Below are positions 4,406 to 45,877 of a stretch of DNA of 60,186 nucleotides, piece by piece. Below the pieces are notes generated by a model. That model did no database searches. It had not been told where the DNA came from and saw nothing but the letters and a program-made list of their open reading frames with translations. A program made the translations under genes and the position numbers. Position 1 is the stretch's first letter, and each line of letters begins with the position of its first letter. Source of the DNA: Bdellovibrionales bacterium (lineage in GTDB: Bacteria > Bdellovibrionota > Bdellovibrionia > Bdellovibrionales > UBA1609). Location: the NCBI GenBank assembly GCA_022450595.1, contig JAKUPT010000010.1, forward strand, positions 1 to 60,186. Reading direction: 5' to 3'.

Positions 4406-4413
4406 CAAATGAG

Positions 4414-4441
4414 TTATCGACATTTTTTAGTTAATTATTAA
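4414..4441 (-). promoter_or_regulatory. sigma28 (FliA)-like promoter
   Basis: TTAA-N16-GTCGATAA on the minus strand upstream of the RCC1-repeat gene. Confidence 0.55.
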
Positions 4442-10442: not shown

Positions 10443-10448
10443 AGGTAC

Positions 10449-10476
10449 TATTCGTCTATTTGCAAGCAATACTTAA
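10449..10476 (-). promoter_or_regulatory. sigma28-like promoter
   Basis: TTAA-N16-GACGAATA. Confidence 0.45.
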
Positions 10477-11132: not shown

Positions 11133-12089
11133 ATGGATAAAAAAGACCAACAAATTAAATTTTTGATTACCACATTGGCGTTATTTATACTGCCATTAGC
11201 TTTTTTTCAAAACTGCGCAAAGTCAGATGCGGTTTCTCAGCTTAAATCCAGTGCTGGTACCTTATCCGGTGACTTAAGCTCTGGAAGTGTAATCACAAGT
11301 CAGCCACCGGCCGAGCAGGTGATCACACTTGGAGGCTCGACCACTTTGAGTGTCTCGGTTTTAACTGATGAGAGTGTTCAATACCAGTGGTACAAAGATC
11401 AAAACCCGATCTCTCAAGCCCAAAGTTATGAGTTAACTTTAAGTGATTTAAAACAAAGTGACTCTGGTGAGTACTATGTTGAAGTAAAAACTCCTACAAA
11501 AACCTTTAAGTCTAATGTTTCTAAACTAATAGTTACCACCTCTGAGTCTGGAAACTATGTCTCTGCACCGCCAAAAGATATAGAGATTGCAATGAATCAA
11601 ACAGGCCTTCTAACAAGCACTGTTGCAGGCAAGTCTCCTAACTATGTTGTGTGGTACAAAGATGGAGAGGTCATTGCTGAGACCAACCCTTTTTATGTGT
11701 ATCAAGGCAGTGGCAACACCTATAGTTTAAAAGTGCTGGCTGTGAGCCTAAACATTCAAGGCGATTATAGAGTTGAGTATATTTATGATGACGAACAAAT
11801 CGTGAGTCAAACAGCAAAGGTGACCATTAAACCTCTTGTGGGAATCACTCTTGATGATGGTAACTTTGCACGCATTTGGGCGCAACCAGGACACGAACAA
11901 GAAAACTTGAAGGCATACTGCTTAGCCACAGCTAACACGTCTGTGGTGGTCTCATCGACAGTATCAAGCCCCACCTTCTCTCAATATGTGGCTTATGATG
12001 GCAATGAGGATGGTGATGGTCAGTTCAGAATTTTTTCTGCAGGAATGAATGGCGCGCAATTTTACGACAGCATTGTTTGTGGAAATTAA
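11133..12089 (+). CDS. Immunoglobulin (I-set-like) domain lipoprotein
   Basis: FFQNC lipobox; two Ig-like modules (YQWYKD...DSGEYYV and WYKDG...GDYRV). Confidence 0.8.
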   Translation: MDKKDQQIKFLITTLALFILPLAFFQNCAKSDAVSQLKSSAGTLSGDLSSGSVITSQPPAEQVITLGGSTTLSVSVLTDESVQYQWYKDQNPISQAQSYELTLSDLKQSDSGEYYVEVKTPTKTFKSNVSKLIVTTSESGNYVSAPPKDIEIAMNQTGLLTSTVAGKSPNYVVWYKDGEVIAETNPFYVYQGSGNTYSLKVLAVSLNIQGDYRVEYIYDDEQIVSQTAKVTIKPLVGITLDDGNFARIWAQPGHEQENLKAYCLATANTSVVVSSTVSSPTFSQYVAYDGNEDGDGQFRIFSAGMNGAQFYDSIVCGN

Positions 12090-16906: not shown

Positions 16907-17488
16907 TTGATGTGGTGCATTATGAATAGCCGCTACTCTCTTAACAAAACCAAATATTTGCTCGACCCTGAGGTTGAAAAGCTAACCTATCTTTTAAAAA
17001 GCCATATCGATAATGATCGCAGAAACTGTGTATTACTTCTTTTAGCCCTAAATATTGGAGCCAGGGCTCAGGAGCTTTTAAATATTCGCTGGAGTGACAT
17101 CAATGAGTACGACCAAACCGTATTTATTAGAGGCATTAAAAACAGTAACGATCGAGAGCTGCCACTGCCCGACTGGCTTTTTAGAGAATTATTAAAAATC
17201 AAATCAAACCCAGGAAAGCCTCCAAAGCTTGGTGGCGCCCAGCTTAAAATATCCCCTCAATATGTGTTCCCAATAACTTATAATCGCCTGAGGCAAATCT
17301 GGGAGCTTTACAGACCTGTAAATAAAAAGTTTCATGCTTTAAGGCATACATTTGCCATCAGGATCTATAAAAAGACAAAAGACATACGATTATTACAAGT
17401 AGCATTGGGGCACCGAAATATCACTAATACGATGATTTATGCGGACTATGTGTATTCTCAACAGGAGCTCAAAAAATTAATTCTATAA
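16907..17488 (+). CDS. Short tyrosine recombinase (catalytic domain only, FimB/FimE-like size)
   Basis: GAR (R), GIK (K), HALRH, LGH and TMIY (Y) are all present. The start may be ATG 16922. Confidence 0.9.
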   Translation: MMWCIMNSRYSLNKTKYLLDPEVEKLTYLLKSHIDNDRRNCVLLLLALNIGARAQELLNIRWSDINEYDQTVFIRGIKNSNDRELPLPDWLFRELLKIKSNPGKPPKLGGAQLKISPQYVFPITYNRLRQIWELYRPVNKKFHALRHTFAIRIYKKTKDIRLLQVALGHRNITNTMIYADYVYSQQELKKLIL

Positions 17489-19271: not shown

Positions 19272-22200
19272 TTATAGTTCATCTGCCCCGACATCCCAAG
19301 GCACACTTCGATTCGACCCTTCTATATCGATTGAAAATGGGAAGCTTGCATCACCGGAAAGGTCAGTACCAGCTCCTACCTGATCAGAGCTAGATCCCTG
19401 AATACGCAGATCATCGTTGGTGAAGTCTCCGTCGTCTGAAAAACTAACAAATAATTCACTTGTGGTTTGAGATGTTAAAAAACTATTCGCTCCAAAGTTT
19501 GTGGGCATAACAACATCTGTAATGTTGTAATCAGAGTCAGCATGCAATTGGAGAGTTCTTTTGCAACTATTTACATTACACTGTAGCGCCAAGGTATTTT
19601 TTAATATCATATTGCCCTCTTCGTGATTAAATCCATAGAGACTCCTAATAGTGGTGGTGTTATAAATACGCATAAAACCTCCACTTACTCTATAAAATAT
19701 CGCAGAAGAATAGCCCGCAATAATATTGTTTATTGAAAAACACTCACCACATCCAACAATAGACATTCCATTATTTCCCTGCCCAGCACTTCCTGAAAAG
19801 ATAAAGAGGTTATTTTTAATATAATGCTGACTATAATAATCGTCACTAGAGTTAACGTAAATCCCGTCAGCTGAACTATTTCCTGGTGATTGAACATATA
19901 TCTGCAGCCCCTCAATAATACTATTGTTAGCACTCATAATAATAGGTGTTGTGTCGGTGGTAACAATACGTACCGCAGAGGTGCTCCAAGCCCCAACATG
20001 TCGCTGGCTTACTCCCACTTCGGTGGGTGAAGAAGGGGCAAATAAATGAATATGATTAGCTCTAGTTGTTTTCCAACCAACATTAAAATTAACCCCCTCG
20101 CTAAACACAGCATCGTTGTAAAGAGCAAGGTGCCAGACTTCATCCGTACCAGTGAGTACAGATATATCTCGATCACCGGAGCCGTCAAAGCTGCGCAAAG
20201 CAAGGTCAATTCCAGTATTTTCAATTTGATTCTCAGCATCGGCTAAGGATGTATAAGACCTATAGATCGACCAGTCGGTATCAGATGTTGTCGCTACTGG
20301 GGTTCCACCCAAGCTGTTTTTTACAACAAACTGAGTTGATGAAACTCGAGAGTGAATAAATGCAATAGCATCAACAGTATTGGCTCCACTGCCATTACCC
20401 CCGCCATCAGAATCATACTGAATAGCATCCCCTACTCCTACGTTATCAGGCAAAGGGCTTGAAAATACTGCCGTCGATGCACTTATTGACATGGCATTTG
20501 CTCCGCCTACAGCTAAGGCCGAAGTGCTGCCGTATCCAACCGACCTATAAAAATGCACAGGATTAGGAAGGGGAAATGATTTGTTCAAAGGATCAGGGTC
20601 TGCCGTATCTGGGTCCGCAGCAATTGTGCGCACTTTTATAGTATCTCCTGGGTTATATCCTGCCGGAAGAGTTCTTATATCTGCGGTGAAAGCCTTAAAA
20701 CTCCTTGTCATTACAACAGAATTTCCCGTCTGCGGATCACAACCAGGGTTATCGGTATAATTGCAGTAATAAAAGGTAACTCTGACATCTAAATCGATAT
20801 CGCGTGTGGACTGCGCAGCGATCGAAAAACTATCCGTGTCCAACTTGTGAACCACTAACCCGTTCAACTGAATGTCGGTTAACCTAATGGTTGCATTTTG
20901 TGGCGACTGATAAACCCCCTCGGGGTCAGTGACAATCACACGTAGGTTTAGATAATCATTAGGGTCATTCGGCATCGTCAATCCTGTCACTGAAGCTACA
21001 TAGTTTGCCCCAGTAAGAGTCATTGCAGCCGATGAGCCAGCTTCTGGGTTACAACCAGGACTATCGGTCTCGTTACAATACCAAACTGTGGCCGCTGAGT
21101 TGGTCTCGGGGTCACCAGAACTTGGAACACTGATTTCAAAGCTTGTTCCAGTGGCTCTGACGAGTTCAATTGGAGAAAGAACTACTTGAGCAAGAGGAAC
21201 AGTGCCTGTTTTGGGTGAGTCGATAGAACCATTTGGATCTGATGCAACCGCCGCCACTGACATAAGATCAGCCTCATCGTTAGGTGCTGTAAGACCCGAG
21301 ACTGTCGCAGTGAAGGTTGTACCAGTTCGATTCATCAAAACAGATGTCCCTGTGGTAGTAGGATCACACCCAGGACTGTCAGTCACATTGCAGTAATAAA
21401 GAGTGACAGAGCCGTTTTGTTCTAAATCTCCTTTTGATGGCACTGTTGCAGTGAAACCTGCTTTGGTCTGAGCACTAAAGGTAAGACCATCTAAATCCAA
21501 AGCTGTGCCATCTAGTGTTACTGTCGATGATATTGGGCTGTTTGAAGTTCCATTTGTATCCGTTGCTACAGCCCGAATATTAAATACATCAGTTGGAGAA
21601 GTTAGTCCTGAAATAGTCACAGTATAGGAAGAGCTACCTCTAGTCATGGCAGAAGAGGCTCCCGCACTAGGGTCACAACCTGGCACTTCACTAGCATTAC
21701 AATAGAAAAGATTGACGGAGCCATTAGTATTCATATCACCGGTAAAATCCACTGAGGCATCAAAGGCGCTTGAGGTGATATTACTAGCTGCTAAATTGCT
21801 AATTGATAGAGAGTATATACTTAAAGTTGTTGTAGTGCTCTGAGGAGAGCCACTAGAGCCATCTGTATCGGATGCAACTACTCGTATATTAAAAGTATCC
21901 CCTTCGTCATTGGGCGAACTGAGAGAACTTATGCTGGCAGTATAGCTAGATGTACCTTTAGTCATTGCCACACTAACTCCAGTACTTACTGGATCACAAG
22001 CTGGAGCGTCGGTTGAATTACAATAATAAAGTGTCGTATTACCATTTGTATTTTCATCGCCATTAAAGTCGACACTGACGTCGAAAGAGTTGTTAGTCAC
22101 ATTACTTATAAGTAAATTACTAAGAGACAAAGAATAGGTTTTTAATGTCACAGTTGAGCTGAGTGGTGACCCCATAGTGCCATCAGGGTCCTGTGCTATG

Positions 22201-22910
22201 AGCTCAATGTTCAACACATCTGCTTCATCATAAGGAGAGGATAATGAAGTAATGCTTGCACTAAATTTTGATGCTCCTTTAATCATATTTATTGAAGATC
22301 CCACACTGCTTGGGTCACAACCAGGAGTGTCGGTATTATTACAATAATAAAGAACAGCGGAGCCATTTTCATTAAAATCACCAAAAAAATCACCCGTAAC
22401 ATCAAAAGAATTATTAGTAATATTTGATATTGTTAGGTTCGAAATAGACAGCCCTTCTTCACTTAGTAGCTGAAAACTCCCTGTAAAACGAGTTGGACTA
22501 TCTTTATCTATATCTGTGATATCTATAATGTAATTAAAAGAATCTTCAGGATCATTAGGAGAACTTAAATTACTTATAAGACCTGAAAAAGTGCTACTGC
22601 TTGTTCGTATTAGATTTAAAGAGACACCAGTCTTAGCATCACAACCAGGAGTATCTGTATTGTTGCAATAAAAAAACTTAGCTGTAGCATTTGAATTTAA
22701 ATCACCAGTATAATTAATATCAACTTTTAAAGAGTCTGATGTCAGGACAGTTATGCTGTGGTTTTCAACAGATATCTTATCATTGGCTAGATACCCTTCT
22801 TGTATCTTACCAATACTACCACCGCAAGCGACTAAGAAAAAAGGAGTAGTAACGCTTACAAAACAATGGAATAACCTTAAAATATACGTACAATAATTAC
22901 AGGCATTCAC
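19272..22910 (-). CDS. Large surface lipoprotein/adhesin: 7 x ~105-110-aa repeats plus a C-terminal beta-helix-like domain
   Basis: LVAC lipobox; seven [YFW]YCNx[TS][DE]xPxC[DN] repeats; C-terminal DIEG..R...WDVGADE motif like those ending pectin-lyase-fold surface proteins. Confidence 0.78.
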   Translation of the reverse strand: MNACNYCTYILRLFHCFVSVTTPFFLVACGGSIGKIQEGYLANDKISVENHSITVLTSDSLKVDINYTGDLNSNATAKFFYCNNTDTPGCDAKTGVSLNLIRTSSSTFSGLISNLSSPNDPEDSFNYIIDITDIDKDSPTRFTGSFQLLSEEGLSISNLTISNITNNSFDVTGDFFGDFNENGSAVLYYCNNTDTPGCDPSSVGSSINMIKGASKFSASITSLSSPYDEADVLNIELIAQDPDGTMGSPLSSTVTLKTYSLSLSNLLISNVTNNSFDVSVDFNGDENTNGNTTLYYCNSTDAPACDPVSTGVSVAMTKGTSSYTASISSLSSPNDEGDTFNIRVVASDTDGSSGSPQSTTTTLSIYSLSISNLAASNITSSAFDASVDFTGDMNTNGSVNLFYCNASEVPGCDPSAGASSAMTRGSSSYTVTISGLTSPTDVFNIRAVATDTNGTSNSPISSTVTLDGTALDLDGLTFSAQTKAGFTATVPSKGDLEQNGSVTLYYCNVTDSPGCDPTTTGTSVLMNRTGTTFTATVSGLTAPNDEADLMSVAAVASDPNGSIDSPKTGTVPLAQVVLSPIELVRATGTSFEISVPSSGDPETNSAATVWYCNETDSPGCNPEAGSSAAMTLTGANYVASVTGLTMPNDPNDYLNLRVIVTDPEGVYQSPQNATIRLTDIQLNGLVVHKLDTDSFSIAAQSTRDIDLDVRVTFYYCNYTDNPGCDPQTGNSVVMTRSFKAFTADIRTLPAGYNPGDTIKVRTIAADPDTADPDPLNKSFPLPNPVHFYRSVGYGSTSALAVGGANAMSISASTAVFSSPLPDNVGVGDAIQYDSDGGGNGSGANTVDAIAFIHSRVSSTQFVVKNSLGGTPVATTSDTDWSIYRSYTSLADAENQIENTGIDLALRSFDGSGDRDISVLTGTDEVWHLALYNDAVFSEGVNFNVGWKTTRANHIHLFAPSSPTEVGVSQRHVGAWSTSAVRIVTTDTTPIIMSANNSIIEGLQIYVQSPGNSSADGIYVNSSDDYYSQHYIKNNLFIFSGSAGQGNNGMSIVGCGECFSINNIIAGYSSAIFYRVSGGFMRIYNTTTIRSLYGFNHEEGNMILKNTLALQCNVNSCKRTLQLHADSDYNITDVVMPTNFGANSFLTSQTTSELFVSFSDDGDFTNDDLRIQGSSSDQVGAGTDLSGDASFPFSIDIEGSNRSVPWDVGADEL

Positions 22911-22943
22911 AGATTAAACCTTTCAAAACAACACACTTATTAC

Positions 22944-23002
22944 TTATCGACTAAAAATCGCTGTAACCTTAGAATAGTGAGCTTATGTGTCAAATTTATA
23001 CA
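22944..23002 (-). promoter_or_regulatory. sigma28-like promoter plus upstream 17-bp palindrome
   Basis: TAAG-N16-GTCGATAA (22944-22971, minus strand) and TGTGTCAAATTTATACA (22986-23002). Confidence 0.55.
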
Positions 23003-23173
23003 GTAATATTTATGAAATTTAATATCATAAATATAAATTTAAAAATAAATTGAGTTTAGAATAGGTAGGCAACATTTCTGTACCATATTGAGATATAAAT
23101 ATGAATTATGTGTAGAGGAATAGAGTGTGGGCAAAATCACATTAAAGAAGTTTTTTAATCTCGTTAATATGAA

Positions 23174-25954
23174 CTAGTAAAACATAAATCTACAACTCAT
23201 TCCTACATTTTGATTTTCATGAATAACCTTTATTGCGTCATCAAAATACGGTCTATAGCTTTGATCCATAGAGCTTACATGTTCTTTAAAAGCTGTACGA
23301 AACTGACTAGTACCATGCTCATAGTATTTTATAAACTTATCCCATACATCCATGTCCGGAGAATTTAAAACATATGGCATCAATGACAAAACTTGTTTGG
23401 ATCTAATGTCTGTTTTAACAACTATATCAAAAATCTCATAATGCTTCATAATTTCAAAGGCATTTATAAACTCAGTTTTGTTATTTCTTTCGTATTTATT
23501 TAAATTGTCTATAAAAAGTCTTAAATAGTGTTGGGAGCTAAACATATCTTTTCGGTATAAATCCCTTAACCTAATTGTGAGCTCTTCAAATAAGTCAGTT
23601 CCAACTAAGTATCCAGACAATGAAAAGAGCACATTGTTCCAGCTTTGATGTTTACTTTGAGATAAATGAAATTCATGATCAATAATATTTAAAATTCTTA
23701 CCGCCTGCATTTTAAGTGGATCATTATTATTAAGTTTTAATGCATCTATAAAAACACTTTCTAAAAAGTAATTATTGGGAGTATTAATTGTAGTTTTCTC
23801 AGCGTTTTTTCTTACTGACTCAAGCCATTTGTCAAAAAAATCCTCTGAAAACATCAACCTAAGCATATCAATTGAAATAATTTTGAAAAGGTAGTCTTCA
23901 ACTTTTTCATACAAATTATATTCTGTAATAATTTTTAATTTATCAGCTAACTTTGTTATGTCTTTTTCAAACTCAATAACCTTAGATAAATACTCTGCAT
24001 CAATAATATCTTTATAGTTTTTTACTACATATTTAAAGAATCTGTCTTTATTTTTAGCTTTGCTATCATGAAGAATTTCTTCAATATTAACAAGTAGAGT
24101 GGTGAAATCCATCACTCCAGTACTATAGCTTTCTTTTAGATTATGAATATCTAAGTCTTTAACAAGTCTAATGGCATTTTTTGTTTTATCTTCGCTCGAT
24201 TTTATAAATCGTGAGACTCTTTGAATACCAACACTTTGATAGTGCTTAAAGGCTTCATGATCGATTTGTGATTTTAAAACGTATAAGACCTTTAAAAAAT
24301 AAAGAGCTTTTTGATATTCTGTTGGAGGTTGAGGTTGAATTTTGTCTCTATCTTTTTTTGGTACTCTCCAAACAAAAGGCTTATAATTACCTTTGTTATT
24401 ATGAATATGTCCATCTTTTTCACTAAAAGAAGAACTCCATGCAGATAAAGAATATAATCTATTTTCTGGTGATATCACATAAAGCTCTGAATGATTTTTG
24501 TTAAAGACAACAAAAGATTTATAGCCAAGCTTTTGAGCCAAAATCTTTCCTCTTAGAGCTGTATCCCGACAGTCATTAGCACAACCCAACACATCATCGT
24601 TTGCTAATAGTTTTATAACATCTAGCTTATGAGTTTTTGAGGCCTCAGCCTTTAATCCAACTAAAATTGGCAAAGCCGCCTTCATTTGTTCATTGAAGCT
24701 TGTATATCTTAACTTTAAATCATTAGCTACAATATCTAAGAAAACACTGACTTCAGAATTAAAATCTAGAAACATTTTAGGATGTTGACCGCCATGTGAT
24801 TGGCTACCATCAATAATCATATAATGTTCTAATTTATCTAAAGACTGTAATCGCTTTGGAATCTCTCTTTCTAATGTACTTAGTGTATGTGTATTTCTTT
24901 TAAAATAATCCATCCAATATGAAGTTGGTCTGGTTATTTTTCTAGATGAGACTTTTCTCTCAAGAGAAGTTTCAATAAATTCAGCAAGCTTTGGGATATT
25001 GAATTTTTCATATATATCAATTGCATAGCTAGGTTTCGTGCTTTCTATTAAAGATTTTGTTAAAATTTTATTCATTCTTTGCAAGATATAATGAAGACTA
25101 TTTCTATCCAAATCAGCCTCAGTGACTGAGTTTAGATAGTCTGTAATAATTTTTTTAACCAAATCATCTGACTGAACATCACCTTTTAATTCGTATCTTG
25201 CCAGGTTAGCAATATACTTTACAGCGGAAACGATTTCAGGATTTTTGCCGGCCTTTGCTAAAGCAGTTTCAGAATGATTTTCTGAATGAAAGTAGTAGTT
25301 TGTTTCTTTCAAAAAAGCGTCCAAATAAGATTTTCCATCAGGGGTATTTTTGGTTCTCACATCGTAAAGTGAGGGATATTTTTTTGATAGTTTTTTGTTA
25401 AGTGGTAACACTCTTATCATTCCACTAGAAATGGCATCAGTGTTTTGTTGGTTAATATTTTTGTTTTCAAAAATTCCACGATCATTTTCATAATGAAGTG
25501 ATACAGTTTCCCATCTCGTTTTTCCCTCAACAACCTCTGGAAAATGCTCCTTCAGCTCTTCAACTAAGTTATTTCTGATTTCATGTGTGGCATCAACCGC
25601 AATATCAACATCTGAAATATGACTTAAAAGATGCCTTGAAAAGCTTTTTGGAAGTCCTGTTGCTCTTTTATTACCTTTTTTTCTCTCTAGATATTCATGA
25701 ACAGCAGATACAATCTGATGTGCGGCCCCACCGTAAATATAGATGGGCATAGATCTAGGCGTCCAATAAGTGGAGTCTTTATCGTGTTGTTTATTATTTT
25801 CTGATAAAAACTTTTTAATGATTTCAGCTTCTTGAGTTTTCGATAAGTACTCTAAAACCGCATCTTCAAGAACCACACTCTCAAGTCGAACTCTGTCGAT
25901 GGCAAAAACATTTATTGATAAAATTGTTATTATAAAAAACAACAGACTTTTCAT
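23174..25954 (-). CDS. Secreted protein with nucleotidyltransferase-like (CCA/poly(A) polymerase head-like) N-domain and possible transglutaminase-like domain
   Basis: Signal peptide MKSLLFFIITILSINVFA; IYIYGG...SDVDIAVD; NDCRDTA...NHSELYV; C-terminus SCRFMFY. Confidence 0.6.
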   Translation of the reverse strand: MKSLLFFIITILSINVFAIDRVRLESVVLEDAVLEYLSKTQEAEIIKKFLSENNKQHDKDSTYWTPRSMPIYIYGGAAHQIVSAVHEYLERKKGNKRATGLPKSFSRHLLSHISDVDIAVDATHEIRNNLVEELKEHFPEVVEGKTRWETVSLHYENDRGIFENKNINQQNTDAISSGMIRVLPLNKKLSKKYPSLYDVRTKNTPDGKSYLDAFLKETNYYFHSENHSETALAKAGKNPEIVSAVKYIANLARYELKGDVQSDDLVKKIITDYLNSVTEADLDRNSLHYILQRMNKILTKSLIESTKPSYAIDIYEKFNIPKLAEFIETSLERKVSSRKITRPTSYWMDYFKRNTHTLSTLEREIPKRLQSLDKLEHYMIIDGSQSHGGQHPKMFLDFNSEVSVFLDIVANDLKLRYTSFNEQMKAALPILVGLKAEASKTHKLDVIKLLANDDVLGCANDCRDTALRGKILAQKLGYKSFVVFNKNHSELYVISPENRLYSLSAWSSSFSEKDGHIHNNKGNYKPFVWRVPKKDRDKIQPQPPTEYQKALYFLKVLYVLKSQIDHEAFKHYQSVGIQRVSRFIKSSEDKTKNAIRLVKDLDIHNLKESYSTGVMDFTTLLVNIEEILHDSKAKNKDRFFKYVVKNYKDIIDAEYLSKVIEFEKDITKLADKLKIITEYNLYEKVEDYLFKIISIDMLRLMFSEDFFDKWLESVRKNAEKTTINTPNNYFLESVFIDALKLNNNDPLKMQAVRILNIIDHEFHLSQSKHQSWNNVLFSLSGYLVGTDLFEELTIRLRDLYRKDMFSSQHYLRLFIDNLNKYERNNKTEFINAFEIMKHYEIFDIVVKTDIRSKQVLSLMPYVLNSPDMDVWDKFIKYYEHGTSQFRTAFKEHVSSMDQSYRPYFDDAIKVIHENQNVGMSCRFMFY

Positions 25955-25984
25955 AATATTCCCCTAAACACATAACCCTTAATA

Positions 25985-28900
25985 TTATTGAAATAACGAA
26001 ATACACTTCCCCGCGGATCTTCCGCTGTCAACACTCATAAGATTAAAAAATGCCCGTGTTTTATTCACATTTTCTATTTTTGGAGATGTTTTTTTGTACT
26101 TTGTCATCATTATCTTTTCAAACTGCTGTTGAGAAATCTCACCGTTTTTCATTAAACGCTCTACGATTTTTTCAACAAACTCCCACTTTTCACTCAGCTC
26201 ATATATCGCGATCTCTGTGGCCTGCTTAAAAAGCTCTTCACTTTTTTTAAGCATTTGTGGACTTAATCTAAAGTTTTGTTGATCATTATTCGATACCATT
26301 GGCAGCTCTGATATAAATTCTGGAAAGATCCCATATTCGGTGATAGCTGATTTAATAATAGATCTTGCCATTTGAACATCTTGCCTCATTCCTGCATCAG
26401 CCTCAAATCCGGCCATTTGCTGTGAAATGCTACCTGCAAGTAGACCTGCCACTCTGTACAGTACACTGTTTTGAGTCACTGAGGGACTTCCCGGCATTGG
26501 GGTGTATCTTGCGTATCCAAGATAGTGCCCTCGTCCAACTATGGTGATAAAAGCCAATTTTTGGTTGGTGTATTTCGGGTTGTTAACCACAGCGTGACCG
26601 GCCTCATGAAAGCTTGTTAATTTAGCTTGATCTTTGGATTGAAGATGAATGACATCGGCAAAGTCAGTCACTTCAACGGAGACTGTATCTATCACTTTGC
26701 CTTTGTTGTTTTTAATATTAGCAACAATTTCTACCTTTCTTTCGTAGTTTGTTACATCTTCAATAAAAGGCTTGTTAGGCATATTGTCTTTAATTTCTAA
26801 ATTTATAGTTGCATCGGTTAACTGGTGGGACATCAACTTAATTCGAGCTTTTACAATGGTCGATGTAAGCTGAGATTCAATCACACTTCTTAAGCTTCTA
26901 GCCCCCTTGTCGTGAGTGAAAAACACACGTCCAAGAGTCTTTTCAAACTCTTTGTCATAATTAATTTTAATTTCTTGTTCTTTTAGTTTTTCGTGAATAG
27001 GTGATAAAAATTTTGGAGCAATGTATTCTGCAACTACCTCGCGCGTCAGTGGCTTCATTAAAATCACATCTAGCATTCGACCTAAAAAGGCTTCTGGAAC
27101 TCCACTTTCAAGAAGCAACTTATGAAGAGTTGACTGCTTTCGGCTATGATCCCAAATAGTCAGTCGTATATCATCGGCAGCCACACCCTTAAATAAATTT
27201 TCACCATCATTACCTGTAAAAATAAATACATGCTTTGAAAGGTCATACACTTTACCTGTAGCTGTAGATTCCCAACGCCTTTCGTCTGTGATTTCATACA
27301 TCTCTTTAAACAGTTCATCTTTTAAGGCTTTATTATTTCCACCCATATTAGAGGCTTCATCAAATAAAAGCACACCGCCTTCTGGGTTTGAAATTAAATA
27401 CCTTTCAAATTGCCCAGCCTTATCACCACTGACATAACCTGGAGGCGGGTTAAATACTTTATTAAAGTCCCCTTCAAACCTAATGGTTCCTAAGTTAATA
27501 AATCCTGTTCTATTGCTTGAACCATAAAGGGTTTCTGCTAAGGCTTTGGCAGTTTCTGACTTCCCTGTTCCTGTAGACCCAATAAGAAATAAGCTCATAG
27601 CTCTTTGGCGTTCTTGAGAATCTCCAATATGAGAGATAACCGCTTCACTGATTTTTTGGATCATTTCATTTTGTCCAAAAATTTTATTACTCATATTTTT
27701 ATGAAGATTTTCAATAATATTTAATATGCTCTTGTCTTGAAGTGGGTCTGTCACAGGCTTTGCTGGAGCATCTATTTTAGTCAATTCTGTATCATTGTTT
27801 GAAACCACAAATTTTTGATCTTGATAGCTGATATCTACTTTAATGTCTTCGCCCCTGTCTACTACATGCTCTGCAATAGATAATTTTATGTCAGTTAAGA
27901 TTCTTTCCATTGAGCGAATAATAGGCCTGGCCCCATATTCACTGTTGTAATTATGGTTCACTAAAATTTCTATGACCTCTTTGTCGATTCTTAATTCAAT
28001 GCCCGTGTCATATTTAAATCGACTAACGATCTCATTGAGATAATTCACAGCAATGTGCTCTGCAGAGGTTTTATTTAATGGAGCTGCAACTGTAAAAATG
28101 TCTATACGGTTTTTAATTTCTGGTGGAAGCTTTCCTTGATCCCCATAGTTACCGCTACTCTTGTGGTCTACCATCTCTTTTAAGCTGTCAGAGGTCATTT
28201 TTCCTAAAAAGTTGCGCATTTCAGACTCAGTCCAAGATTCCCAAGACTTTGGAAAGATCATGTCCACACTTCTGTTTGAAGTCATAATAAAAAGAAGATT
28301 TTTAACGTGACGGACCTTACCATCACCACCAGTTATTATACCTCTGTCTTGTAGCTCCATAATCCTTTGTAAGTGATCTGGATGCATCTTCTCAATTTCG
28401 TTAATAAGAACGATACCGCCCTTTCCTCCACGGCCAGGGTCGTCTATCCACTCTATAAACTGTCCAGACGTCTTTTGAGAAGATTCAATACCATTTGGGG
28501 CACCAAACAAGCTGTTGCCTTCAAATCCACCTTTAGAGAGTTCATTGCCGTTGATTTCAAAAAAGGCCCCTCGATTGTTTAACACAATCTCGCTCAAACT
28601 TTGCCCCAGGTAGGTTTTACCAGTTCCCGTAGTTCCTACTATATAAACCGAGGCCACGTTTTTATTTCTTGATTGAAGAAGTCCCGAGTAGGCGTTAAGA
28701 ACGTCTTTATTCATTCTCTCTTGGCCCACAACTTTTTCATTTAGCTTTGCTTCCACCTGATTAAAGAACTTAAAAAACTCAGAAAAGTTATTTGGGTCAA
28801 CAGGAAGACTGTAATACTCTCGTACAATTTCAGAGAGCTCATTTTTACCAATTTCTTTAATGGCTTCATCAGAGGTGGTCGAGTTTCTAATGGCAATGGA

Positions 28901-30148
28901 TTCAAGGATTTTAATGCTTCCATCTACTTTACCGTTGTTTGGAAGAAGTTTTAATGAGTCCTCAATCACTCGATCTATGATCTCTTCTTGAAACCTCACC
29001 CCATGGCGCCTTTCAACCTTAGTGATCCAGGTGTCGTAAAGTATCTGTTTCACTCTGTCATTTGGAAGCTCTTCAACACCAACTTGTTTGACTCGTCTTA
29101 AAAAAGCCTTATTGTCCTTAAAAGCCAAATTGAACTCTTCAGAGGTCGAAGCAAATATAAACTTTAAATTGCCTTGTGATTCTAGATAGCGTTTTAATGC
29201 TTCAACTTGGGCTTTTTCTAAAGTGTGAACTTCATCAATAAAAATAGCGATGGGTTGCTTAAGCTCTTTTTGAGCCGCTGAAACGGCCTCGACATACATT
29301 TCAATAGCTGCAGCCTGCGAGGCACTGTCGTTGGATTTTGCTAGAGTTGAAATCTTTGCCGGTGTGGTTTCAATGACTGTTAAGTCTTTTAAACTTTCAA
29401 AAGATCGGTTTTTAGGAAGCTGGTTATTAAATGAGATCTCATCAATTGCAACAGCAATGGAAGTTTTACCTACACCTGCTGGCCCTACAAGCACAGGGTT
29501 ACGACCTTTAATTCTTGCTAACACCTCAAGTGTTTGCATCACCTCTTTGTCACGACCTACAGTGGGAATGTATTCGTTGGCGGCCTTTTTCTCTAAAGCC
29601 TCATCACGCAAAAAGCCAACGGTACCCTCTAAGATAACTTCACCAAATTTTAAAGAGGCTATTTTGTCTTTTATAGAGGCATCTTCTGAAACCAATGAAG
29701 ACATACTTGTAAGCTCATATTGAGGTGAGTTTTGTAACCGGCTTTTTAAGTTATCAACTGCCGTATGAATAAACTGAACACCTTTTTGATCAGCAAGCTT
29801 TCCTTCAGAATTGGCAGCTTCAAATCTTTCAATCAGATCGGAGATTTTTCCTGAAGTTTCAGCATTGATAAAATGATTTAATGAATCAAAGGCTGCAGAA
29901 AGAATAAAACTATTAAGTTTTTTATTATTATTAACACTTTTAAGTTGTGTTTCGACGATTGTGACAACTTTGTCATAAACTTCAAAATACTTATAACTTT
30001 CAAGTGTTTTAAGTGTTTCACTAACAACTACGGCATCGGTATTTCCTAAGTTGGAAATAACATCTCTAACTTCATAAAGTTTTTCCTGTGAAGCCTGTAA
30101 TTGAAAACAAAAGATCGTTGCTATAATAAAGCAAGACAATATACGCAT
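25985..30148 (-). CDS. Signal-peptide-bearing triple AAA+ (ClpA/B-like) ATPase fused to an FtsH-type M41 zinc protease
   Basis: Walker A motifs GPAGVGKT, GTTGTGKT and GSTGTGKS; Walker B motifs IFIDE, VLINE and LLFDE; sensor-2 GARP/GARS; HEAGH. Start ATG 30148 (RBS GGGGTG) gives MRILSCFIIATIFCFQLQA. Confidence 0.85.
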   Translation of the reverse strand: MRILSCFIIATIFCFQLQASQEKLYEVRDVISNLGNTDAVVVSETLKTLESYKYFEVYDKVVTIVETQLKSVNNNKKLNSFILSAAFDSLNHFINAETSGKISDLIERFEAANSEGKLADQKGVQFIHTAVDNLKSRLQNSPQYELTSMSSLVSEDASIKDKIASLKFGEVILEGTVGFLRDEALEKKAANEYIPTVGRDKEVMQTLEVLARIKGRNPVLVGPAGVGKTSIAVAIDEISFNNQLPKNRSFESLKDLTVIETTPAKISTLAKSNDSASQAAAIEMYVEAVSAAQKELKQPIAIFIDEVHTLEKAQVEALKRYLESQGNLKFIFASTSEEFNLAFKDNKAFLRRVKQVGVEELPNDRVKQILYDTWITKVERRHGVRFQEEIIDRVIEDSLKLLPNNGKVDGSIKILESIAIRNSTTSDEAIKEIGKNELSEIVREYYSLPVDPNNFSEFFKFFNQVEAKLNEKVVGQERMNKDVLNAYSGLLQSRNKNVASVYIVGTTGTGKTYLGQSLSEIVLNNRGAFFEINGNELSKGGFEGNSLFGAPNGIESSQKTSGQFIEWIDDPGRGGKGGIVLINEIEKMHPDHLQRIMELQDRGIITGGDGKVRHVKNLLFIMTSNRSVDMIFPKSWESWTESEMRNFLGKMTSDSLKEMVDHKSSGNYGDQGKLPPEIKNRIDIFTVAAPLNKTSAEHIAVNYLNEIVSRFKYDTGIELRIDKEVIEILVNHNYNSEYGARPIIRSMERILTDIKLSIAEHVVDRGEDIKVDISYQDQKFVVSNNDTELTKIDAPAKPVTDPLQDKSILNIIENLHKNMSNKIFGQNEMIQKISEAVISHIGDSQERQRAMSLFLIGSTGTGKSETAKALAETLYGSSNRTGFINLGTIRFEGDFNKVFNPPPGYVSGDKAGQFERYLISNPEGGVLLFDEASNMGGNNKALKDELFKEMYEITDERRWESTATGKVYDLSKHVFIFTGNDGENLFKGVAADDIRLTIWDHSRKQSTLHKLLLESGVPEAFLGRMLDVILMKPLTREVVAEYIAPKFLSPIHEKLKEQEIKINYDKEFEKTLGRVFFTHDKGARSLRSVIESQLTSTIVKARIKLMSHQLTDATINLEIKDNMPNKPFIEDVTNYERKVEIVANIKNNKGKVIDTVSVEVTDFADVIHLQSKDQAKLTSFHEAGHAVVNNPKYTNQKLAFITIVGRGHYLGYARYTPMPGSPSVTQNSVLYRVAGLLAGSISQQMAGFEADAGMRQDVQMARSIIKSAITEYGIFPEFISELPMVSNNDQQNFRLSPQMLKKSEELFKQATEIAIYELSEKWEFVEKIVERLMKNGEISQQQFEKIMMTKYKKTSPKIENVNKTRAFFNLMSVDSGRSAGKCISLFQ

Positions 30149-30489
30149 AATCACCCCAATAATTATTTTTATATCCCTCAACATCTTGGTATTGAAATCT
30201 ATGCATATATAAGTCAAGTGCTAGAAATTTAGTAATAATGAAATTCTTATATTTGAATGTAATTATGTAAGTAGAAGCTTAGGTAAAATTTAATCATAAC
30301 AAGCCGTTCTCGACACTAAATCTATCAATCAGAGTACTTATTAAGCAATCTTGATAACTTTTTACAAAATTGTATAAAAAGCATTTTTATCATCTATTAA
30401 AAGTGAACTTAAAGAAGAATCAGCTAATAGAAGTATATAAATATTATAGGGATAAGTTGGATTGTAAAATTGACTAGATGTAGGAATGT

Positions 30490-31365
30490 TTACTTCTTAT
30501 TTGTTTTAAGAAACTCTGGCACCTTTAAAGGAATAAAGTCTTTAATTAGTTTTCGGATTGAATTAATTAAATTAAATCTTCTATACCAAACAAGTTTACT
30601 CAATTGCTGATCTGCGGTTTTATAACCTTCATCAATAAGTTTTTTCTTATTGGCTGAGTTATCAAACAGGCTATATTTACTTAAATCTAAAGAGATCTTG
30701 ATGTCGGCCAATCTCACTTGTTCCTTTGTTCTGGAGTCAATGGCAATATCTATGGCATTTCCAACAACAGTAAATATATCCATGGGTTTTTGGTATTCAT
30801 TAACTCCATTTAAATCTACAGCCACAGTAATTCCAGCTCCCATATTTTTTACGGCTGCTACGGGTACATTTTGAGTGATGCCCCCGTCAACAAGCAGTCT
30901 CCCCTCATGCTCAACAGGTGTAAATACTCCAGGCACAGCAACGGAGGCACAGACAGCCGGTATGAGCTTTCCTTTTTTAAAAATAACAGACTCCCCTGAT
31001 GTGATGTCTGTAGTGCAAATAGCTAGAGGGATTTTTGCATCTTCAATATTTACATCTCCAATATCATTTAAAAGCATTTGTTTTATAGAGTCTGTGCTTA
31101 CAAATCCTCTTTTGTCTAAATTAAGCTTAAAAACACTTTTAGCTTTTAAACGCTCACCAAGCTGATCTATCTCATCTAAATTTTTCCCAAAGGCATAGTA
31201 GCTGGCTACAATAGCTCCGACACTGGTGCCTGATATGTAAGAAATGTTTATATTTTTGTCGTCAAAAGCTCTTAGCACACCTATATGCGCAAGACCTTTA
31301 GCAGCTCCCCCGCCGAGGGCAAGACCGATTTTTTTATTAAACGGATTAAAAGATAGTTTTTCCAT
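30490..31365 (-). CDS. Patatin-like phospholipase (RssA/NTE family)
   Basis: GGGAAKG, GTSVG and DGG motifs. Confidence 0.92.
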   Translation of the reverse strand: MEKLSFNPFNKKIGLALGGGAAKGLAHIGVLRAFDDKNINISYISGTSVGAIVASYYAFGKNLDEIDQLGERLKAKSVFKLNLDKRGFVSTDSIKQMLLNDIGDVNIEDAKIPLAICTTDITSGESVIFKKGKLIPAVCASVAVPGVFTPVEHEGRLLVDGGITQNVPVAAVKNMGAGITVAVDLNGVNEYQKPMDIFTVVGNAIDIAIDSRTKEQVRLADIKISLDLSKYSLFDNSANKKKLIDEGYKTADQQLSKLVWYRRFNLINSIRKLIKDFIPLKVPEFLKTNKK

Positions 31366-31556
31366 AGCCTCAGTATACAGAAATTAAAGATACATTTCTT
31401 GATATTGTTTTTTTATCAAAAATATTACAAGGGCAGGTTCTTTAGATATTTTGCTATTACTAATCTAAAAAACCTTTAAACTTTAAACAATATATGAATT
31501 TCATATTTTAAAGAGGCATAAATATTATGTTACATTATAAAGAATCAATGATTTAA

Positions 31557-31979
31557 TCAGAAAGGTTTAAAAACAGCTAATAAAATAATAATTATTAAAA
31601 GCGGAGTGGGCCACTCATTGCGAATGCGGCACTGCTTAGAGTTCAAATAGACATTATCCTCTTTAAACTTCAGTCTCACACGGTTGATGTAAGCAGTATA
31701 AACAATCAAAGCGACTATTAAAACAAGCTTTACATGCATCCACCCGGACCACAGCCAATGATCTTGAATATAAAGAAGAATACTGCCGTTAATAACAGTG
31801 AAGTACATAGAAGGCATTGTGATGTATTTATATAGCCTCATTTCCATGACTTTTAACAGGTCGGTAATGTCTTTATTGTCTTTGTTTTCAGCATGGTATA
31901 CGAACAGGCGAAACATATAAAAAAGCCCGGCAAACCAGGTCACCATTCCTATCAGATGAAAGGCTTTAAACCACAACAC
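31557..31979 (-). CDS. hemJ: Protoporphyrinogen IX oxidase HemJ
   Basis: WFKAFH..WFAGLFY..RLFVYH, WMHVKL, NEWP and the KPF C-terminus. Confidence 0.9.
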   Translation of the reverse strand: MLWFKAFHLIGMVTWFAGLFYMFRLFVYHAENKDNKDITDLLKVMEMRLYKYITMPSMYFTVINGSILLYIQDHWLWSGWMHVKLVLIVALIVYTAYINRVRLKFKEDNVYLNSKQCRIRNEWPTPLLIIIILLAVFKPF

Positions 31980-44431: not shown

Positions 44432-45877
44432 TTATTTATTATGTACTAAATATCCATTTGCATAGTACGTATGACTGCGATCATCATCCGGACTAACTGG
44501 TGATCCATAAGCGGCCTCTAGTTTTAAATTGTACACTGTCAAACTTTGATTCCTTATTTGAATAGCATCAGAGTACTCTAATAATTCTGTTCGGTTTTCT
44601 ATACGAATTAACTGATCACCTAAGCCTAAAGCTCCATCCACAATAAATTTATTATGCTCTAAGAATGTTGCTACCGGATTAAAAGACTTCCATTCTTCAT
44701 CTCCTGTATTAGGATTGACAGTTTTCACCGGATGCTCTGAAGTTATAAAGTGGTTGTCGTCATTAAAGGAGTGTAAATATCTATCTCCCAGAGGAACTCT
44801 TTCAATTCCTACCACTTCATTAATGGCTCCACCTTGACCTAATACCAAGTCACCAATTTTAACTTTGGAAATAACAACTTCACTCACCCCATCGGCCATA
44901 AGGATTTTGGTTTCAGCGGTAAAACAACTGCTACCGGCACCACCACCTGAACCCGGATCATGGCGACATCCTGGAGGCCCTCCGGAAATTTTACCATCGT
45001 TACATCTGTATTTTCCACTTCCGCCGCCAGTGTAACGACCACTACAGTGTCTATGATAAGTTTTTGAACTTTCGCCATGTTTTATTGAAATAGTACCGCT
45101 TCTAGTTCTTACATTATTACAATGCCTATAGCATGTTTCAGTTTTTCCATAAATTTTTCCAGAATCACAGTATCCAGCCTTATAGCAAATTTTAGTTCTA
45201 CTATCATAGGGAGTCCTATAACTTTCATTGTGTTCAACAACTTTTTTTGCATCTTTAACAAATCCACAAGATACATGATTTAAAGCAGAACACTTCTCAG
45301 TGCCGTCACTTTGCTTCGTATATTTTCCATCTAAAGTTTCACACATTTGTTTTTTTGTAATTTCAGGCTCTTTAGCACAACTTAAAATTTCTCTAGTTGT
45401 GGGATCTACCGTTAAAAGCACAGTTCCGGCCTGTTGGGGTTTTAGCTCTCCACCTATGAGTTGAACTCTTGGCTTGAAAGTCACCATAAGGTCGGCCTTA
45501 TACTGGTCAGATGTTCCTTGCCTAGATGAATCCTCAATATAAACTCTAGCAATATCTAGATTTTGATCATATTGCTCGCCAGATTTTAATACACGTCCAT
45601 CTTGAAGTCGGAATGTTAAATCCATTCCGTCACCACCGGGGCGTGCTTTTGAGTGATCATAACGTTGCGTGGTACCAGTGATCGCATATTCACATGTGTC
45701 TTCAACAGAAATCATTGTTTGAAGCTCATTAATCAGTACAAAGCTCGACATTTTAACTTCTGTTCTTTTGGTGGCTTTAGTTGACATGACCATCATTTGA
45801 GACAGACCCAGTGTTACAACAGATGTTAGCCCTACCGCCACCATCACCTGAATTAAACTCATTCCTTTATTATTCAT
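44432..45877 (-). CDS. Type IV pilin-like protein with Cys-rich domain and C-terminal Hint (intein-like) domain
   Basis: Class III signal MNNKG/MSLIQVMVAVGL; Hint motifs CFTAETKI, TSEHP, VYNL and YYANGYLVHNK*. Confidence 0.85.
   Translation of the reverse strand: MNNKGMSLIQVMVAVGLTSVVTLGLSQMMVMSTKATKRTEVKMSSFVLINELQTMISVEDTCEYAITGTTQRYDHSKARPGGDGMDLTFRLQDGRVLKSGEQYDQNLDIARVYIEDSSRQGTSDQYKADLMVTFKPRVQLIGGELKPQQAGTVLLTVDPTTREILSCAKEPEITKKQMCETLDGKYTKQSDGTEKCSALNHVSCGFVKDAKKVVEHNESYRTPYDSRTKICYKAGYCDSGKIYGKTETCYRHCNNVRTRSGTISIKHGESSKTYHRHCSGRYTGGGSGKYRCNDGKISGGPPGCRHDPGSGGGAGSSCFTAETKILMADGVSEVVISKVKIGDLVLGQGGAINEVVGIERVPLGDRYLHSFNDDNHFITSEHPVKTVNPNTGDEEWKSFNPVATFLEHNKFIVDGALGLGDQLIRIENRTELLEYSDAIQIRNQSLTVYNLKLEAAYGSPVSPDDDRSHTYYANGYLVHNK

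Follow-up and report, generated by a model that had tools for sequence, protein, structure and literature searches.

Gene and domain organization of the protease chain

The window analyzed here is a stretch of 60,186 nucleotides (nt) from a Bdellovibrionales bacterium (GTDB lineage Bacteria; Bdellovibrionota; Bdellovibrionia; Bdellovibrionales; UBA1609), namely positions 1 to 60,186 of contig JAKUPT010000010.1 in GenBank assembly GCA_022450595.1, and it contains a gene for a single protein chain in which three Clp-type AAA+ modules are followed by a Peptidase_M41 domain (Table 1). This combination had been proposed in an initial annotation, which gave no strand; the gene lies on the minus strand. 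The open reading frame (ORF) extends over 25985..30217 when counted from the first TTG, while translation from the ATG at 30148 gives a protein of 1387 amino acid residues. This ATG is the same start as in homologue P0002 (96% identical), and a GGGGTG stretch is found directly upstream of it. All of the motifs previously listed were found again: GRDKE 198, VGQE 474, FGQNE 824, and GMRQD 1253, together with those given in Table 1. Since such a set is far beyond chance, the observation of three modules plus M41 is confirmed.

Table 1. Features of the protease gene and of the gene downstream of it; nucleotide positions refer to the window and residue numbers to the 1387-residue protein.
Feature	Residues	Position	Strand	Description
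Protease gene		25985..30148	minus	1387 codons + stop; signal peptide, N-domain, D1, D2a, D2b, linker, M41, tag
Signal peptide (predicted)	1-21	30086..30148	minus	M-R, 13-residue hydrophobic core, L-Q-A then S
N-domain, all-helical, HEAT/ARM-like	22-190	29579..30085	minus	AlphaFold2 (AF2) model
D1, ClpA-type AAA+	191-465	28754..29578	minus	Walker A GPAGVGKT 222; Walker B IFIDE 302; FLRR 349
D2a, Clp-D2-type + D2-small	466-800	27749..28753	minus	GTTGTGKT 505; LINEIE 581; GAPNGIE 549; GARP 739
D2b, second Clp-D2-type	801-1110	26819..27748	minus	GSTGTGKS 857; LFDEAS 928; PPGYV 902; GARS 1082
Beta-strand linker, D2b to M41	1111-1165	26654..26818	minus	DSSP on model
Peptidase_M41	1166-1352	26093..26653	minus	HEAGH 1181-1185 at nt 26594-26608; D1257 in GMRQD
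C-terminal tag C-I-S-L-F-Q	1382-1387	25988..26005	minus	Sole Cys of mature chain
Downstream gene, 926 residues		23174..25954	minus	Start 30 nt after protease stop; signal peptide (predicted); tail C-R-F-M-F-Y

The architecture (a ClpA-type D1, two Clp-D2-type modules, and M41 in one chain) was borne out by profile searches. In Pfam, the whole chain matched AAA_2 (1.3e-27), AAA (1.1e-21), Peptidase_M41 (6.2e-20), and ClpB_D2-small (1.2e-18). A classic AAA/P-loop region was placed at residues ~197-360, AAA_2 at 497-684, ClpB_D2-small at 691-766, and a second AAA_2/Torsin-like region from ~804. Peptidase_M41 (PF01434) covered residues 1170-1346 and positions 3-191 of the 191-position profile, with 72.3 bits against a gathering cut-off of 29.9. 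Among the NCBIfam models, ClpA (TIGR02639) was aligned with approximately residues 185-752 (model 175-713 of 734), ClpV with 809-1117, and FtsH with 1171-1340.

The initial annotation had itself raised the possibility that the ORF is an assembly chimera. The window does belong to a 156-contig assembly, and X1, the best holder of the DNA, covers the protease gene only as six short contigs. On the other hand, single Logan contigs from two other studies, X2 (8,638 b) and X5 (38,635 b), each span window positions 25500-30696 unbroken with 90-95% likeness; X2 is free of indels within the ORF, and X5 has a single compensating +1/-1 pair in the C-terminal tail, with 11 nt between the two. Relatives of the M41 part are mostly 1100-1650 residues long, more than 90 long relatives share the domain order, translation gave no internal stops, and the catalytic residues are invariant (see below). 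A chimera or a decaying pseudogene is, therefore, so improbable that it may be set aside. A promoter/terminator scan of positions 22700-31600 was uninformative because the counts (33 and 4) equaled the shuffled expectation (34.5 and 3.9, respectively).

The region ahead of D1 differs from that of ordinary Clp proteins. Clp_N (PF02861) was absent from the best 25 of 41 Pfam rows for this chain and also from the precomputed lists of P0002-P0025, whereas nearly all of the listed ordinary Clp matches carry it. In the AF2 model of this domain (m6fb0f703d6fa; predicted local distance difference test (pLDDT) 83.3, predicted template modeling score (pTM) 0.70), VIA-align found importin-4 (5xah_A, Z 12.1), HEAT-like PH0542 (2db0_B, Z 12.0), and CpcE/F (5n3u_B, Z 11.0) as the nearest structures, and a Foldseek search gave no match at E<=0.001. 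Since Z values of 11-12 are weak for helical repeats, we call the domain HEAT/ARM-like and no more; it is likely a platform for the binding of substrates or partners.

A model of residues 800-1387 (pLDDT 89.2, pTM 0.82; confidence below 50 in the region of the tail tag) covered D2b, the linker, and M41. The linker strands assigned by DSSP (model residues 315-322, 340-347, and 353-360) correspond to protein residues 1114-1159. For D2b, the matches were HSP101 of PTEX, the translocon of exported proteins in Plasmodium (6e10_1, Z 22.1), and ClpA (1ksf_X, Z 20.9) in VIA-align, and nucleotide-binding domain 2 (NBD2) of ClpB (4lj8, E 3.2e-17) in Foldseek; the HSP101, ClpA, and ClpB matches were tied within ~1.5 Z. 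The C-terminal domain does model as M41, a point on which the initial annotation had made its claim depend: VIA-align gave FtsHi (8xks_A, Z 18.1, 203 aligned residues) and the FtsH protease domain (2di4_B, Z 16.2, root-mean-square deviation 3.3, 165 aligned of a 175-residue chain). A whole FtsH chain (7tdo_A) was aligned across D2b and M41 together (Z 16.7, 397 aligned).

Catalytic residues and descent of the modules

Conservation was counted in a 25-row alignment (A1), two rows of which (P0022 and P0024) have D1 absent or wrongly aligned. The Walker A Lys of D1 was found in 23 rows, the Walker B Asp and Glu in 24 and 23, and the Arg-Arg pair in 24. Five residues of D2a (K511, E584, sensor-1 N625, R681, and R741) and six of D2b (K863, D930, E931, N980, R1024, and R1084) were invariant. 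From these residues, all three ATPase rings look able to bind and hydrolyze ATP. The previous description of the middle module as partly disabled was, therefore, retained only in part: the first Walker B residue of D2a (position 583) is Asn instead of Asp in 19 rows (Asp in six), but the catalytic Glu, the Walker A Lys, the sensors, and the Arg finger are present in every row, and D2a is perhaps slowed rather than dead. In the M41 domain, H1181, E1182, and H1185 were conserved in 24, 25, and 24 rows, respectively, and D1257, the third zinc ligand by comparison with FtsH structures, in 24.

Among the three modules, an aromatic pore loop is kept only in D2b. The corresponding position of D2b was Tyr in 13 rows, Phe in seven, and another residue in five, in agreement with the PPGYV noted previously. 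In D2a, the same annotation had pointed out the lack of Tyr in GAPNGIE, and this loss proved to be family-wide: G-A-P-N-G-I corresponds to the G-A-P-P-G-Y of ClpA and ClpB, and the pore position was Val (12 rows), Leu (seven), Ile (four), or a gap (two). The Tyr has also been lost from D1, which had escaped notice. At the D1 pore position (LAKS 269), no aromatic residue was found in the 25 rows (Ser in 16, Gly in three, Ile, Thr, and Ala in one each, a gap in three), and the loop has A-K-S with a six-residue insert versus K-Y-R in the genome's own ClpA and ClpB. D2b, which adjoins the protease, is on these grounds probably the main gripping motor. On inspection by eye, a ClpP-docking [IL]-G-[FL] loop was not apparent in D2a or D2b where ClpA of the same genome has T-L-G-I-H.

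The chain is a true member of Peptidase_M41 and lies outside both FtsH and ClpA/B. It shares with FtsH an AAA+ motor joined to M41 in one chain and the HEXXH motif with the downstream Asp ligand. However, in FtsH two N-terminal membrane helices precede a single AAA module of the classic clade, and the body is cytoplasmic, whereas this chain has one short N-terminal hydrophobic stretch, three Clp-type modules, and a beta linker, and the module adjoining M41 is of the AAA_2/Clp-D2 type; the two-helix topology of FtsH was not found by a hydropathy heuristic. The FtsH equivalog TIGR01241 scored 61.1 bits against a cut-off of 600, over residues 1171-1340 only. With ClpA, ClpC, and ClpB, the chain shares the D1+D2 tandem with its Walker, sensor, and Arg-finger residues, and its D2 folds are nearest to ClpB NBD2 and ClpA D2; it differs in the HEAT-like domain in place of Clp_N, in the third module, in the in-chain protease, in the signal peptide (see below), and in the loss of the pore Tyr from D1 and D2a. 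Scores for the Hsp100 equivalogs fell far below the cut-offs (ClpA, 258.3 against 993; ClpB, 247.4 against 1232; ClpV, 243 against 885), and the aromatic pore-1 loops that class I Hsp100 proteins have in D1 (K-Y-R) and D2 (G-Y-V-G) are lacking in D1 and D2a and present in 20 of 25 rows in D2b. The logic of a self-contained unfoldase-protease is also that of Lon, the AAA+ part of which was among the structural matches (7sxo_A, Z 16.3), but Lon, a cytoplasmic enzyme, has a single AAA+ ring with a Ser-Lys protease. We know of no characterized AAA+ protease that combines three ATPase rings and the proteolytic domain in a single chain. No description of a three-ring M41 family was found by the literature searches bearing on it, nor in a review of the secreted enzymes of Bdellovibrio and like organisms (BALO), in which the terms ATP-dependent, AAA, FtsH, and Clp do not occur.

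A word-indexed search gave 24 full-length relatives (27-96% identity, 1054-1514 residues, E<=1.5e-120), after which E dropped to ordinary ClpC/ClpB at 1e-44. In an exhaustive HMMER search with residues 1100-1387, 1267 proteins passed E<=0.001, of which 149 reached <=1e-10 and 20 reached <=1e-30; the best 150 were mostly of 1100-1650 residues, with the match located C-terminally. Each of the 149 represents a cluster at 50% identity, so that the family has no fewer than 149 such clusters. P-loops numbered at least three in 47 of the 93 representatives with 900 or more residues, two in 41, and one in five. A sample of the two-P-loop members, run through a hidden Markov model of the D2 module, consisted of D2a, D2b, and M41 without D1, and P0225 and P0232, two of the five members with one P-loop, contain only a module of the D2b type. 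Relatives are filed in databases as, e.g., 'AAA family ATPase' or 'ClpC'. Strong orthologues were present in 6 of 40 close relatives, and D2b-M41 was detected at E<=1e-40 in 31 genomes out of a phylum-wide sample of 301 (25 of the 258 high-quality ones). The nearest ESM Atlas cluster (1292 residues, 68 members, M41 in 99%) also belongs to Bdellovibrionota. Unnamed clusters with M41 and AAA_2/ClpB_D2-small were seen in the same atlas, at 787-943 residues in Campylobacterota and Pseudomonadota and at 581-722 residues largely in phages, and Clp-D2-type M41 proteases may be distributed more widely than Bdellovibrionota.

The initial annotation had explained this architecture by duplication of D2 and capture of M41, and taken literally it describes a cytoplasmic machine with a recent internal duplication and a disabled middle ring. 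Two tandem AAA_2-type modules, the Asn for Asp in Walker B of D2a, and its pore loop without Tyr are in line with such a history. However, D2a and D2b are only 25% identical, and each scores higher against D2 of the genome's own ClpB (97.1 and 85.1 bits) than against the other (55.1 and 56.6 bits). In a quick maximum likelihood tree of 87 modules (IQ-TREE with SH-aLRT support; the midpoint root serves display alone), canonical Clp D2 (18 rows, support 99), D2a (31 rows, 99), and D2b together with single-module proteins (100) formed three groups; the midpoint root paired D2a with canonical Clp D2 and left D2b outside. Since D2a and D2b are thus old, separate clades, and the single-module relatives carry D2b-M41, a recent duplication of D2 is not supported. 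The other catalytic residues of D2a are invariant, the Asp is kept in six of 25 rows, and the family bears signal peptides, so we regard this history as a whole as very unlikely. The simplest reading of the sequences is that a ClpA-like D1-D2a unit was fused in front of a D2b-M41 core, or that D1 was lost later in some lines.

The same genome (G000) encodes a second, divergent paralogue (G000:C71:37002-41042, plus strand; 1346 residues) that combines a signal peptide with two AAA+ modules, HEAGH, and the tail C-K-S-L-F; its cysteines occur nowhere but in signal peptide and tag. The genome also has ClpA, ClpB, and Lon of the ordinary kind and a fragment of FtsH, and the three-ring protease gene is therefore an extra. 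A scan of genome contigs with the family alignment was swamped by ordinary FtsH (the patterns match HEAGHA); the one long match among those listed, locus L001, was considered as a fusion and rejected, since it consists of two genes, one for FtsH and, after it, one for a ClpA-like protein.

Predicted export signals, the C-terminal cysteine tail, and neighboring genes

The signal peptide, the non-Clp N-domain, the cysteine tag, and a conserved neighbor were all absent from the initial annotation, and together they change the likely place of action. Signal peptides were called by heuristics (run length, flank charge, and hydropathy) rather than by a trained predictor; since a crude predictor had a background rate of 38%, we placed weight on the statistics of run length, charge, and hydropathy instead. 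An N-terminal hydrophobic run was found in 88 of the 109 long members, with a median length of 13 residues, which is too short for a typical membrane helix, and an end at median position 23. The 15 residues before the run contain on average 2.1 Lys/Arg and 0.25 Asp/Glu, and those after it 1.2 and 2.1, respectively; net charge was higher before the run than after it in 73 of the 88, equal in 10, and lower in five. Small-x-small sites follow the runs. By the same heuristics, the chain studied here has an n-region, a 13-residue core, a small-x-small site, and no further helix, as expected for a Sec signal peptide; its single hydrophobic 19-residue window is at residues 1-19, and a further such window was found in only 4 of 110 family members. 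In the absence of a second helix like that of FtsH, there is nothing to bring the body back into the cytoplasm.

Cysteine content points in the same direction. The only Cys residues of the chain are those at positions 6 and 14, within the signal peptide, and at 1382. Family bodies contain 0.08% Cys versus 0.97% in the ORFs of the genome (~12-fold depletion) and 0.31% in 96 ordinary Clp homologues, and 54 of the 110 bodies are free of Cys.

C1382 itself is kept in 24 of the 25 rows of A1. Among 2367 crude ORFs of at least 150 residues, C-x-x-[LMVI]-[FWY] closed the sequence in 11 cases and was followed by one further residue in 16, against an expectation of ~0.71 per offset, and the 13 other offsets tested gave 0-2 each. 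The consensus of these 27 ORFs of the genome is C-[KR]-x-L-F-(x), with Met as an alternative to Leu. Twenty of the 27 were called signal-peptide-like by the crude predictor (~23 by eye), 20 have no other Cys in the body, and several are clustered; the 27 include the window ORFs 23174-25954 and 25985-30148, C71:37002-41042, and L097-L110. A Pfam family was assigned to four of the 16 ORFs with one residue after the motif (the protease, PNK3P, arginase, and AbiEi-like), the other 11 being outside the Pfam scan; the PNK3P protein has a signal peptide, and the arginase and AbiEi-like proteins do not. Exported proteins with the tag include this PNK3P polynucleotide 3'-phosphatase domain protein (249 residues, G000:C128:1887-2636, L109) and, in relative G028, a protein with an ABC1/UbiB kinase-like domain (1677 residues, L113:2683-7716, minus strand). 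In the protease family, the Cys motif was present within the last 14 residues of 42 of the 93 long representatives, versus a background of 6 in 7780 internal windows. The C-[KR]-x-L-F tail looks, from these counts, like an undescribed sorting or attachment tag of a Bdellovibrionota lineage.

The tag was compared with known C-terminal sorting signals. Tripartite Cys CTERM signals consist of a Cys motif, a membrane helix, and an Arg cluster, and have Rce1-like CPBP proteases as partners (10.1101/2023.06.07.544157). The likeness to such MYXO-CTERM-type signals is that a short C-terminal element with an invariant Cys is common to unrelated exported proteins of one lineage (10.1101/2023.06.07.544157). 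Here, however, only four to five residues follow the Cys, which is too short for such a signal; moreover, no Rce1-like (PF02517) gene was found in the organism's own genome (97% complete). Assignment to the MYXO-CTERM (myxosortase) type was therefore rejected. Two genes of the ICMT family are present (G000:C107:146-415 and C123:7510-7683); because ICMT genes turned up in 5 of 14 control genomes as well, we do not connect them with the Cys tail.

That the protein leaves the cytoplasm is suggested by its signal peptide, by the lack of a second helix, by the scarcity of Cys, and by the tail that it has in common with other proteins, and the protease probably works outside the cytoplasm of its maker. 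The same evidence bears on a different reading, in which the hydrophobic stretch is an uncleaved anchor and the enzyme is an inner-membrane, cytoplasm-facing housekeeping or regulatory protease. ATP is assured only in the cytoplasm, FtsH (the nearest M41 enzyme) is anchored and cytoplasm-facing, the flank charges of this chain are indecisive, and the calls are heuristic, all of which would suit an anchor. Short runs followed by small-x-small sites would not; a net charge that is higher N-terminally in 73 of 88 predicts an N-in, body-out orientation, a second helix occurs in just 4 of 110, and the depletion of Cys together with a tail common to many signal-peptide proteins fits export. ClpA, ClpB, Lon, and FtsH are, in addition, already present in this genome, and we consider an anchored protease unlikely.

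The product of the gene downstream (Table 1) belongs to no Pfam, NCBIfam, or PDB sequence family. Homologues of its N-terminal domain adjoin the orthologues in three of six relatives' loci (alignment A4; homologues at L111:12159-15329, L113:110-2734, and L112:5819-7027). In G034 the homologue is the next gene downstream, in G028 it lies two genes downstream, and in G008 it is adjacent but divergent. Tagged genes are also found beside the orthologues in relatives; G028 has an uninterrupted row of four large genes that all bear the tail, including the one with the ABC1 kinase-like domain. The 926-residue protein has G-G...D-x-D-like motifs, and structural rows of the atlas gave PolyA_pol/CCA enzymes at template modeling (TM) scores of 0.24-0.31, which are below the bar. 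An hhalign comparison with the two PolyA_pol-family enzymes of the genome returned a probability of 0.1-0.2%, and the protein was not accepted as a nucleotidyltransferase; a nucleotidyltransferase-like fold is a weak lead from structural comparison.

Further along the minus strand, 19272-22910 encodes a 1212-residue protein with a lipoprotein-like start (L-V-A-C-G-G), ~7 repeats of Y-C-N-x-T-D-x-P-G-C-D, and no Pfam family; a 1005-residue paralogue is encoded on contig C89. Upstream of the protease gene, beyond a 341-nt AT-rich spacer, lies a patatin-like phospholipase gene without a signal peptide (30490-31365, minus). A 193-residue ORF of the phage integrase family (16907-17488, plus) is ~2 kb from the gene group, and G+C content is 0.31-0.32 over 22001-26000 versus ~0.38 elsewhere; the two features may mark an acquired island. 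The window also contains two large RCC1-repeat proteins (1709-4423 and 7569-10469, both minus) and an immunoglobulin I-set protein (11133-12089, plus), domain types that are commoner in eukaryotes, as well as a 481-residue ORF (44432-45877, minus) with a Hint (homing-endonuclease-associated) match at residues 318-360. The window is chromosomal (fab genes, SHMT, MetRS, and RecQ), and holders of the DNA are mostly marine metagenomes. Among the best 120 SHMT matches, those named by organism were metagenome-assembled genomes of Bdellovibrionaceae/Bdellovibrionales at 73-75% identity, bar one labeled 'bacterium'.

Proposed place of action

To our knowledge, the characterized AAA+ proteases (FtsH, Lon, ClpXP/AP, HslUV, and the proteasome) all work in the ATP-producing compartment of their maker, and none of them resembles the present chain in its cleavable-type Sec signal peptide, its lack of any other membrane helix, and its single Cys in a C-[KR]-x-L-F tail. 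The bacterial periplasm is not known to contain ATP. Since the ATP sites of the chain are nevertheless under strong selection, the enzyme would act where foreign ATP is present, and membership in Bdellovibrionota makes a prey cell the simplest such site. We therefore favor, with about an even chance of being right, an exported, self-contained, ATP-dependent metalloprotease of new architecture that acts on foreign ATP, most likely in prey. The tagged, exported kinase-like and polynucleotide-phosphatase proteins point the same way.

By homology with Clp/Hsp100 proteins and FtsH, the chain would form a hexamer with four stacked tiers, in which a ClpA-like two-ring unfoldase (D1 and D2a) stands in front of a one-ring protease unit (D2b and M41), with the N-domain ahead of them. 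The signal peptide would be cleaved, export and sorting would proceed via the C-[KR]-x-L-F tail, and export would continue beyond the periplasm, most likely into or up to the prey cytoplasm. There, substrate may be recruited by the N-domain, unfolded and threaded by the three ATPase rings, D2b providing the main grip, and cut in the M41 chamber, so that prey proteins are digested with prey ATP.

There are known systems with which parts of this scheme may be compared. HSP101 of the Plasmodium PTEX is a ClpB-type Hsp100 with a signal peptide, and acts outside the parasite plasma membrane. Its likeness to the present chain extends to structure, as the top match of D2b, but HSP101 comes from a eukaryote, has two rings, lacks a protease domain, and belongs to a membrane translocon. 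For phytoplasma FtsH paralogues, AAA+ M41 active sites have been predicted to face the host cytoplasm and to degrade host proteins, although the topology predictions disagree (PMC6981957). These paralogues, as described there, have an ordinary, membrane-anchored FtsH architecture and belong to bacteria inside host cells.

The resemblance to HSP101 leads to another possible exported machine, namely, an unfoldase or translocation motor that pulls proteins across or out of a membrane (e.g., the prey inner membrane), with M41 in a secondary role. The match of D2b to HSP101 (Z 22.1) favors it, even though ClpA and ClpB scored about as high; extraction of membrane proteins is also an activity of FtsH, three rings suggest a high pulling force, and two rings of three without aromatic pore loops are odd for a pure threading protease. 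However, the structural match reflects the general Hsp100 fold, no membrane segment is present, and no translocon partner was found nearby. Furthermore, 24 of 25 rows retain HEXXH and the Asp ligand, which indicates that proteolysis is under selection, and we rate a motor of this type as rather improbable.

Several points weigh against an exported protease acting in prey. In addition to the heuristic nature of the signal-peptide calls, the flank charges of this chain are weak, with one Arg before the core and two Lys/Arg and three Asp/Glu after it, and the tag, though frequent, does not occur throughout the family (42 of 93 long relatives carry it). Export limited to the periplasm would leave the ATPase sites useless, while the passage of a 150-kDa subunit across two or three membranes, followed by hexamerization, would be a demanding route, and no secretion system is linked to the protease. 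The predatory lifestyle of the source organism is derived from taxonomy only, and the gene is present in only about one-tenth of the sampled genomes of the phylum, so that it is not core to predation. No RNA data sets were listed among the holders of the DNA, and no cultured close relative was seen among the SHMT matches (best identity outside the organism's own population, 76%).

A wider view, which we put forward tentatively and hold to be possible rather than probable, is that the protease belongs to a whole class of Sec-exported effectors with a lone C-terminal Cys, many of them linked to ATP or nucleic acids, which are delivered into prey and run on the ATP of the victim. The four-tier protease would then serve the predator as an imported proteasome that liquefies the prey proteome. 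The class may comprise the protease, the kinase-like protein, the PNK-type phosphatase, and perhaps the nucleotidyltransferase-like neighbor. The Cys would be a covalent sorting handle, and may form a lipid, thioester, or disulfide tether that is releasable in the reducing cytoplasm of the prey.

It is through its export signals and its tag that the protease may prove to be more than a variant of known architecture types. The family raises the questions of whether a bacterium can export an ATP-driven degradation machine that runs on the ATP of another cell, what mechanical gain is obtained from a three-ring stack in which two rings are without aromatic pore loops, and whether the single-Cys tail C-[KR]-x-L-F is a new sorting or attachment signal. 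For structural biology, the chain would offer a natural four-tier AAA+ machine, and for the biology of predatory bacteria a possible handle on digestion of the prey cytoplasm.

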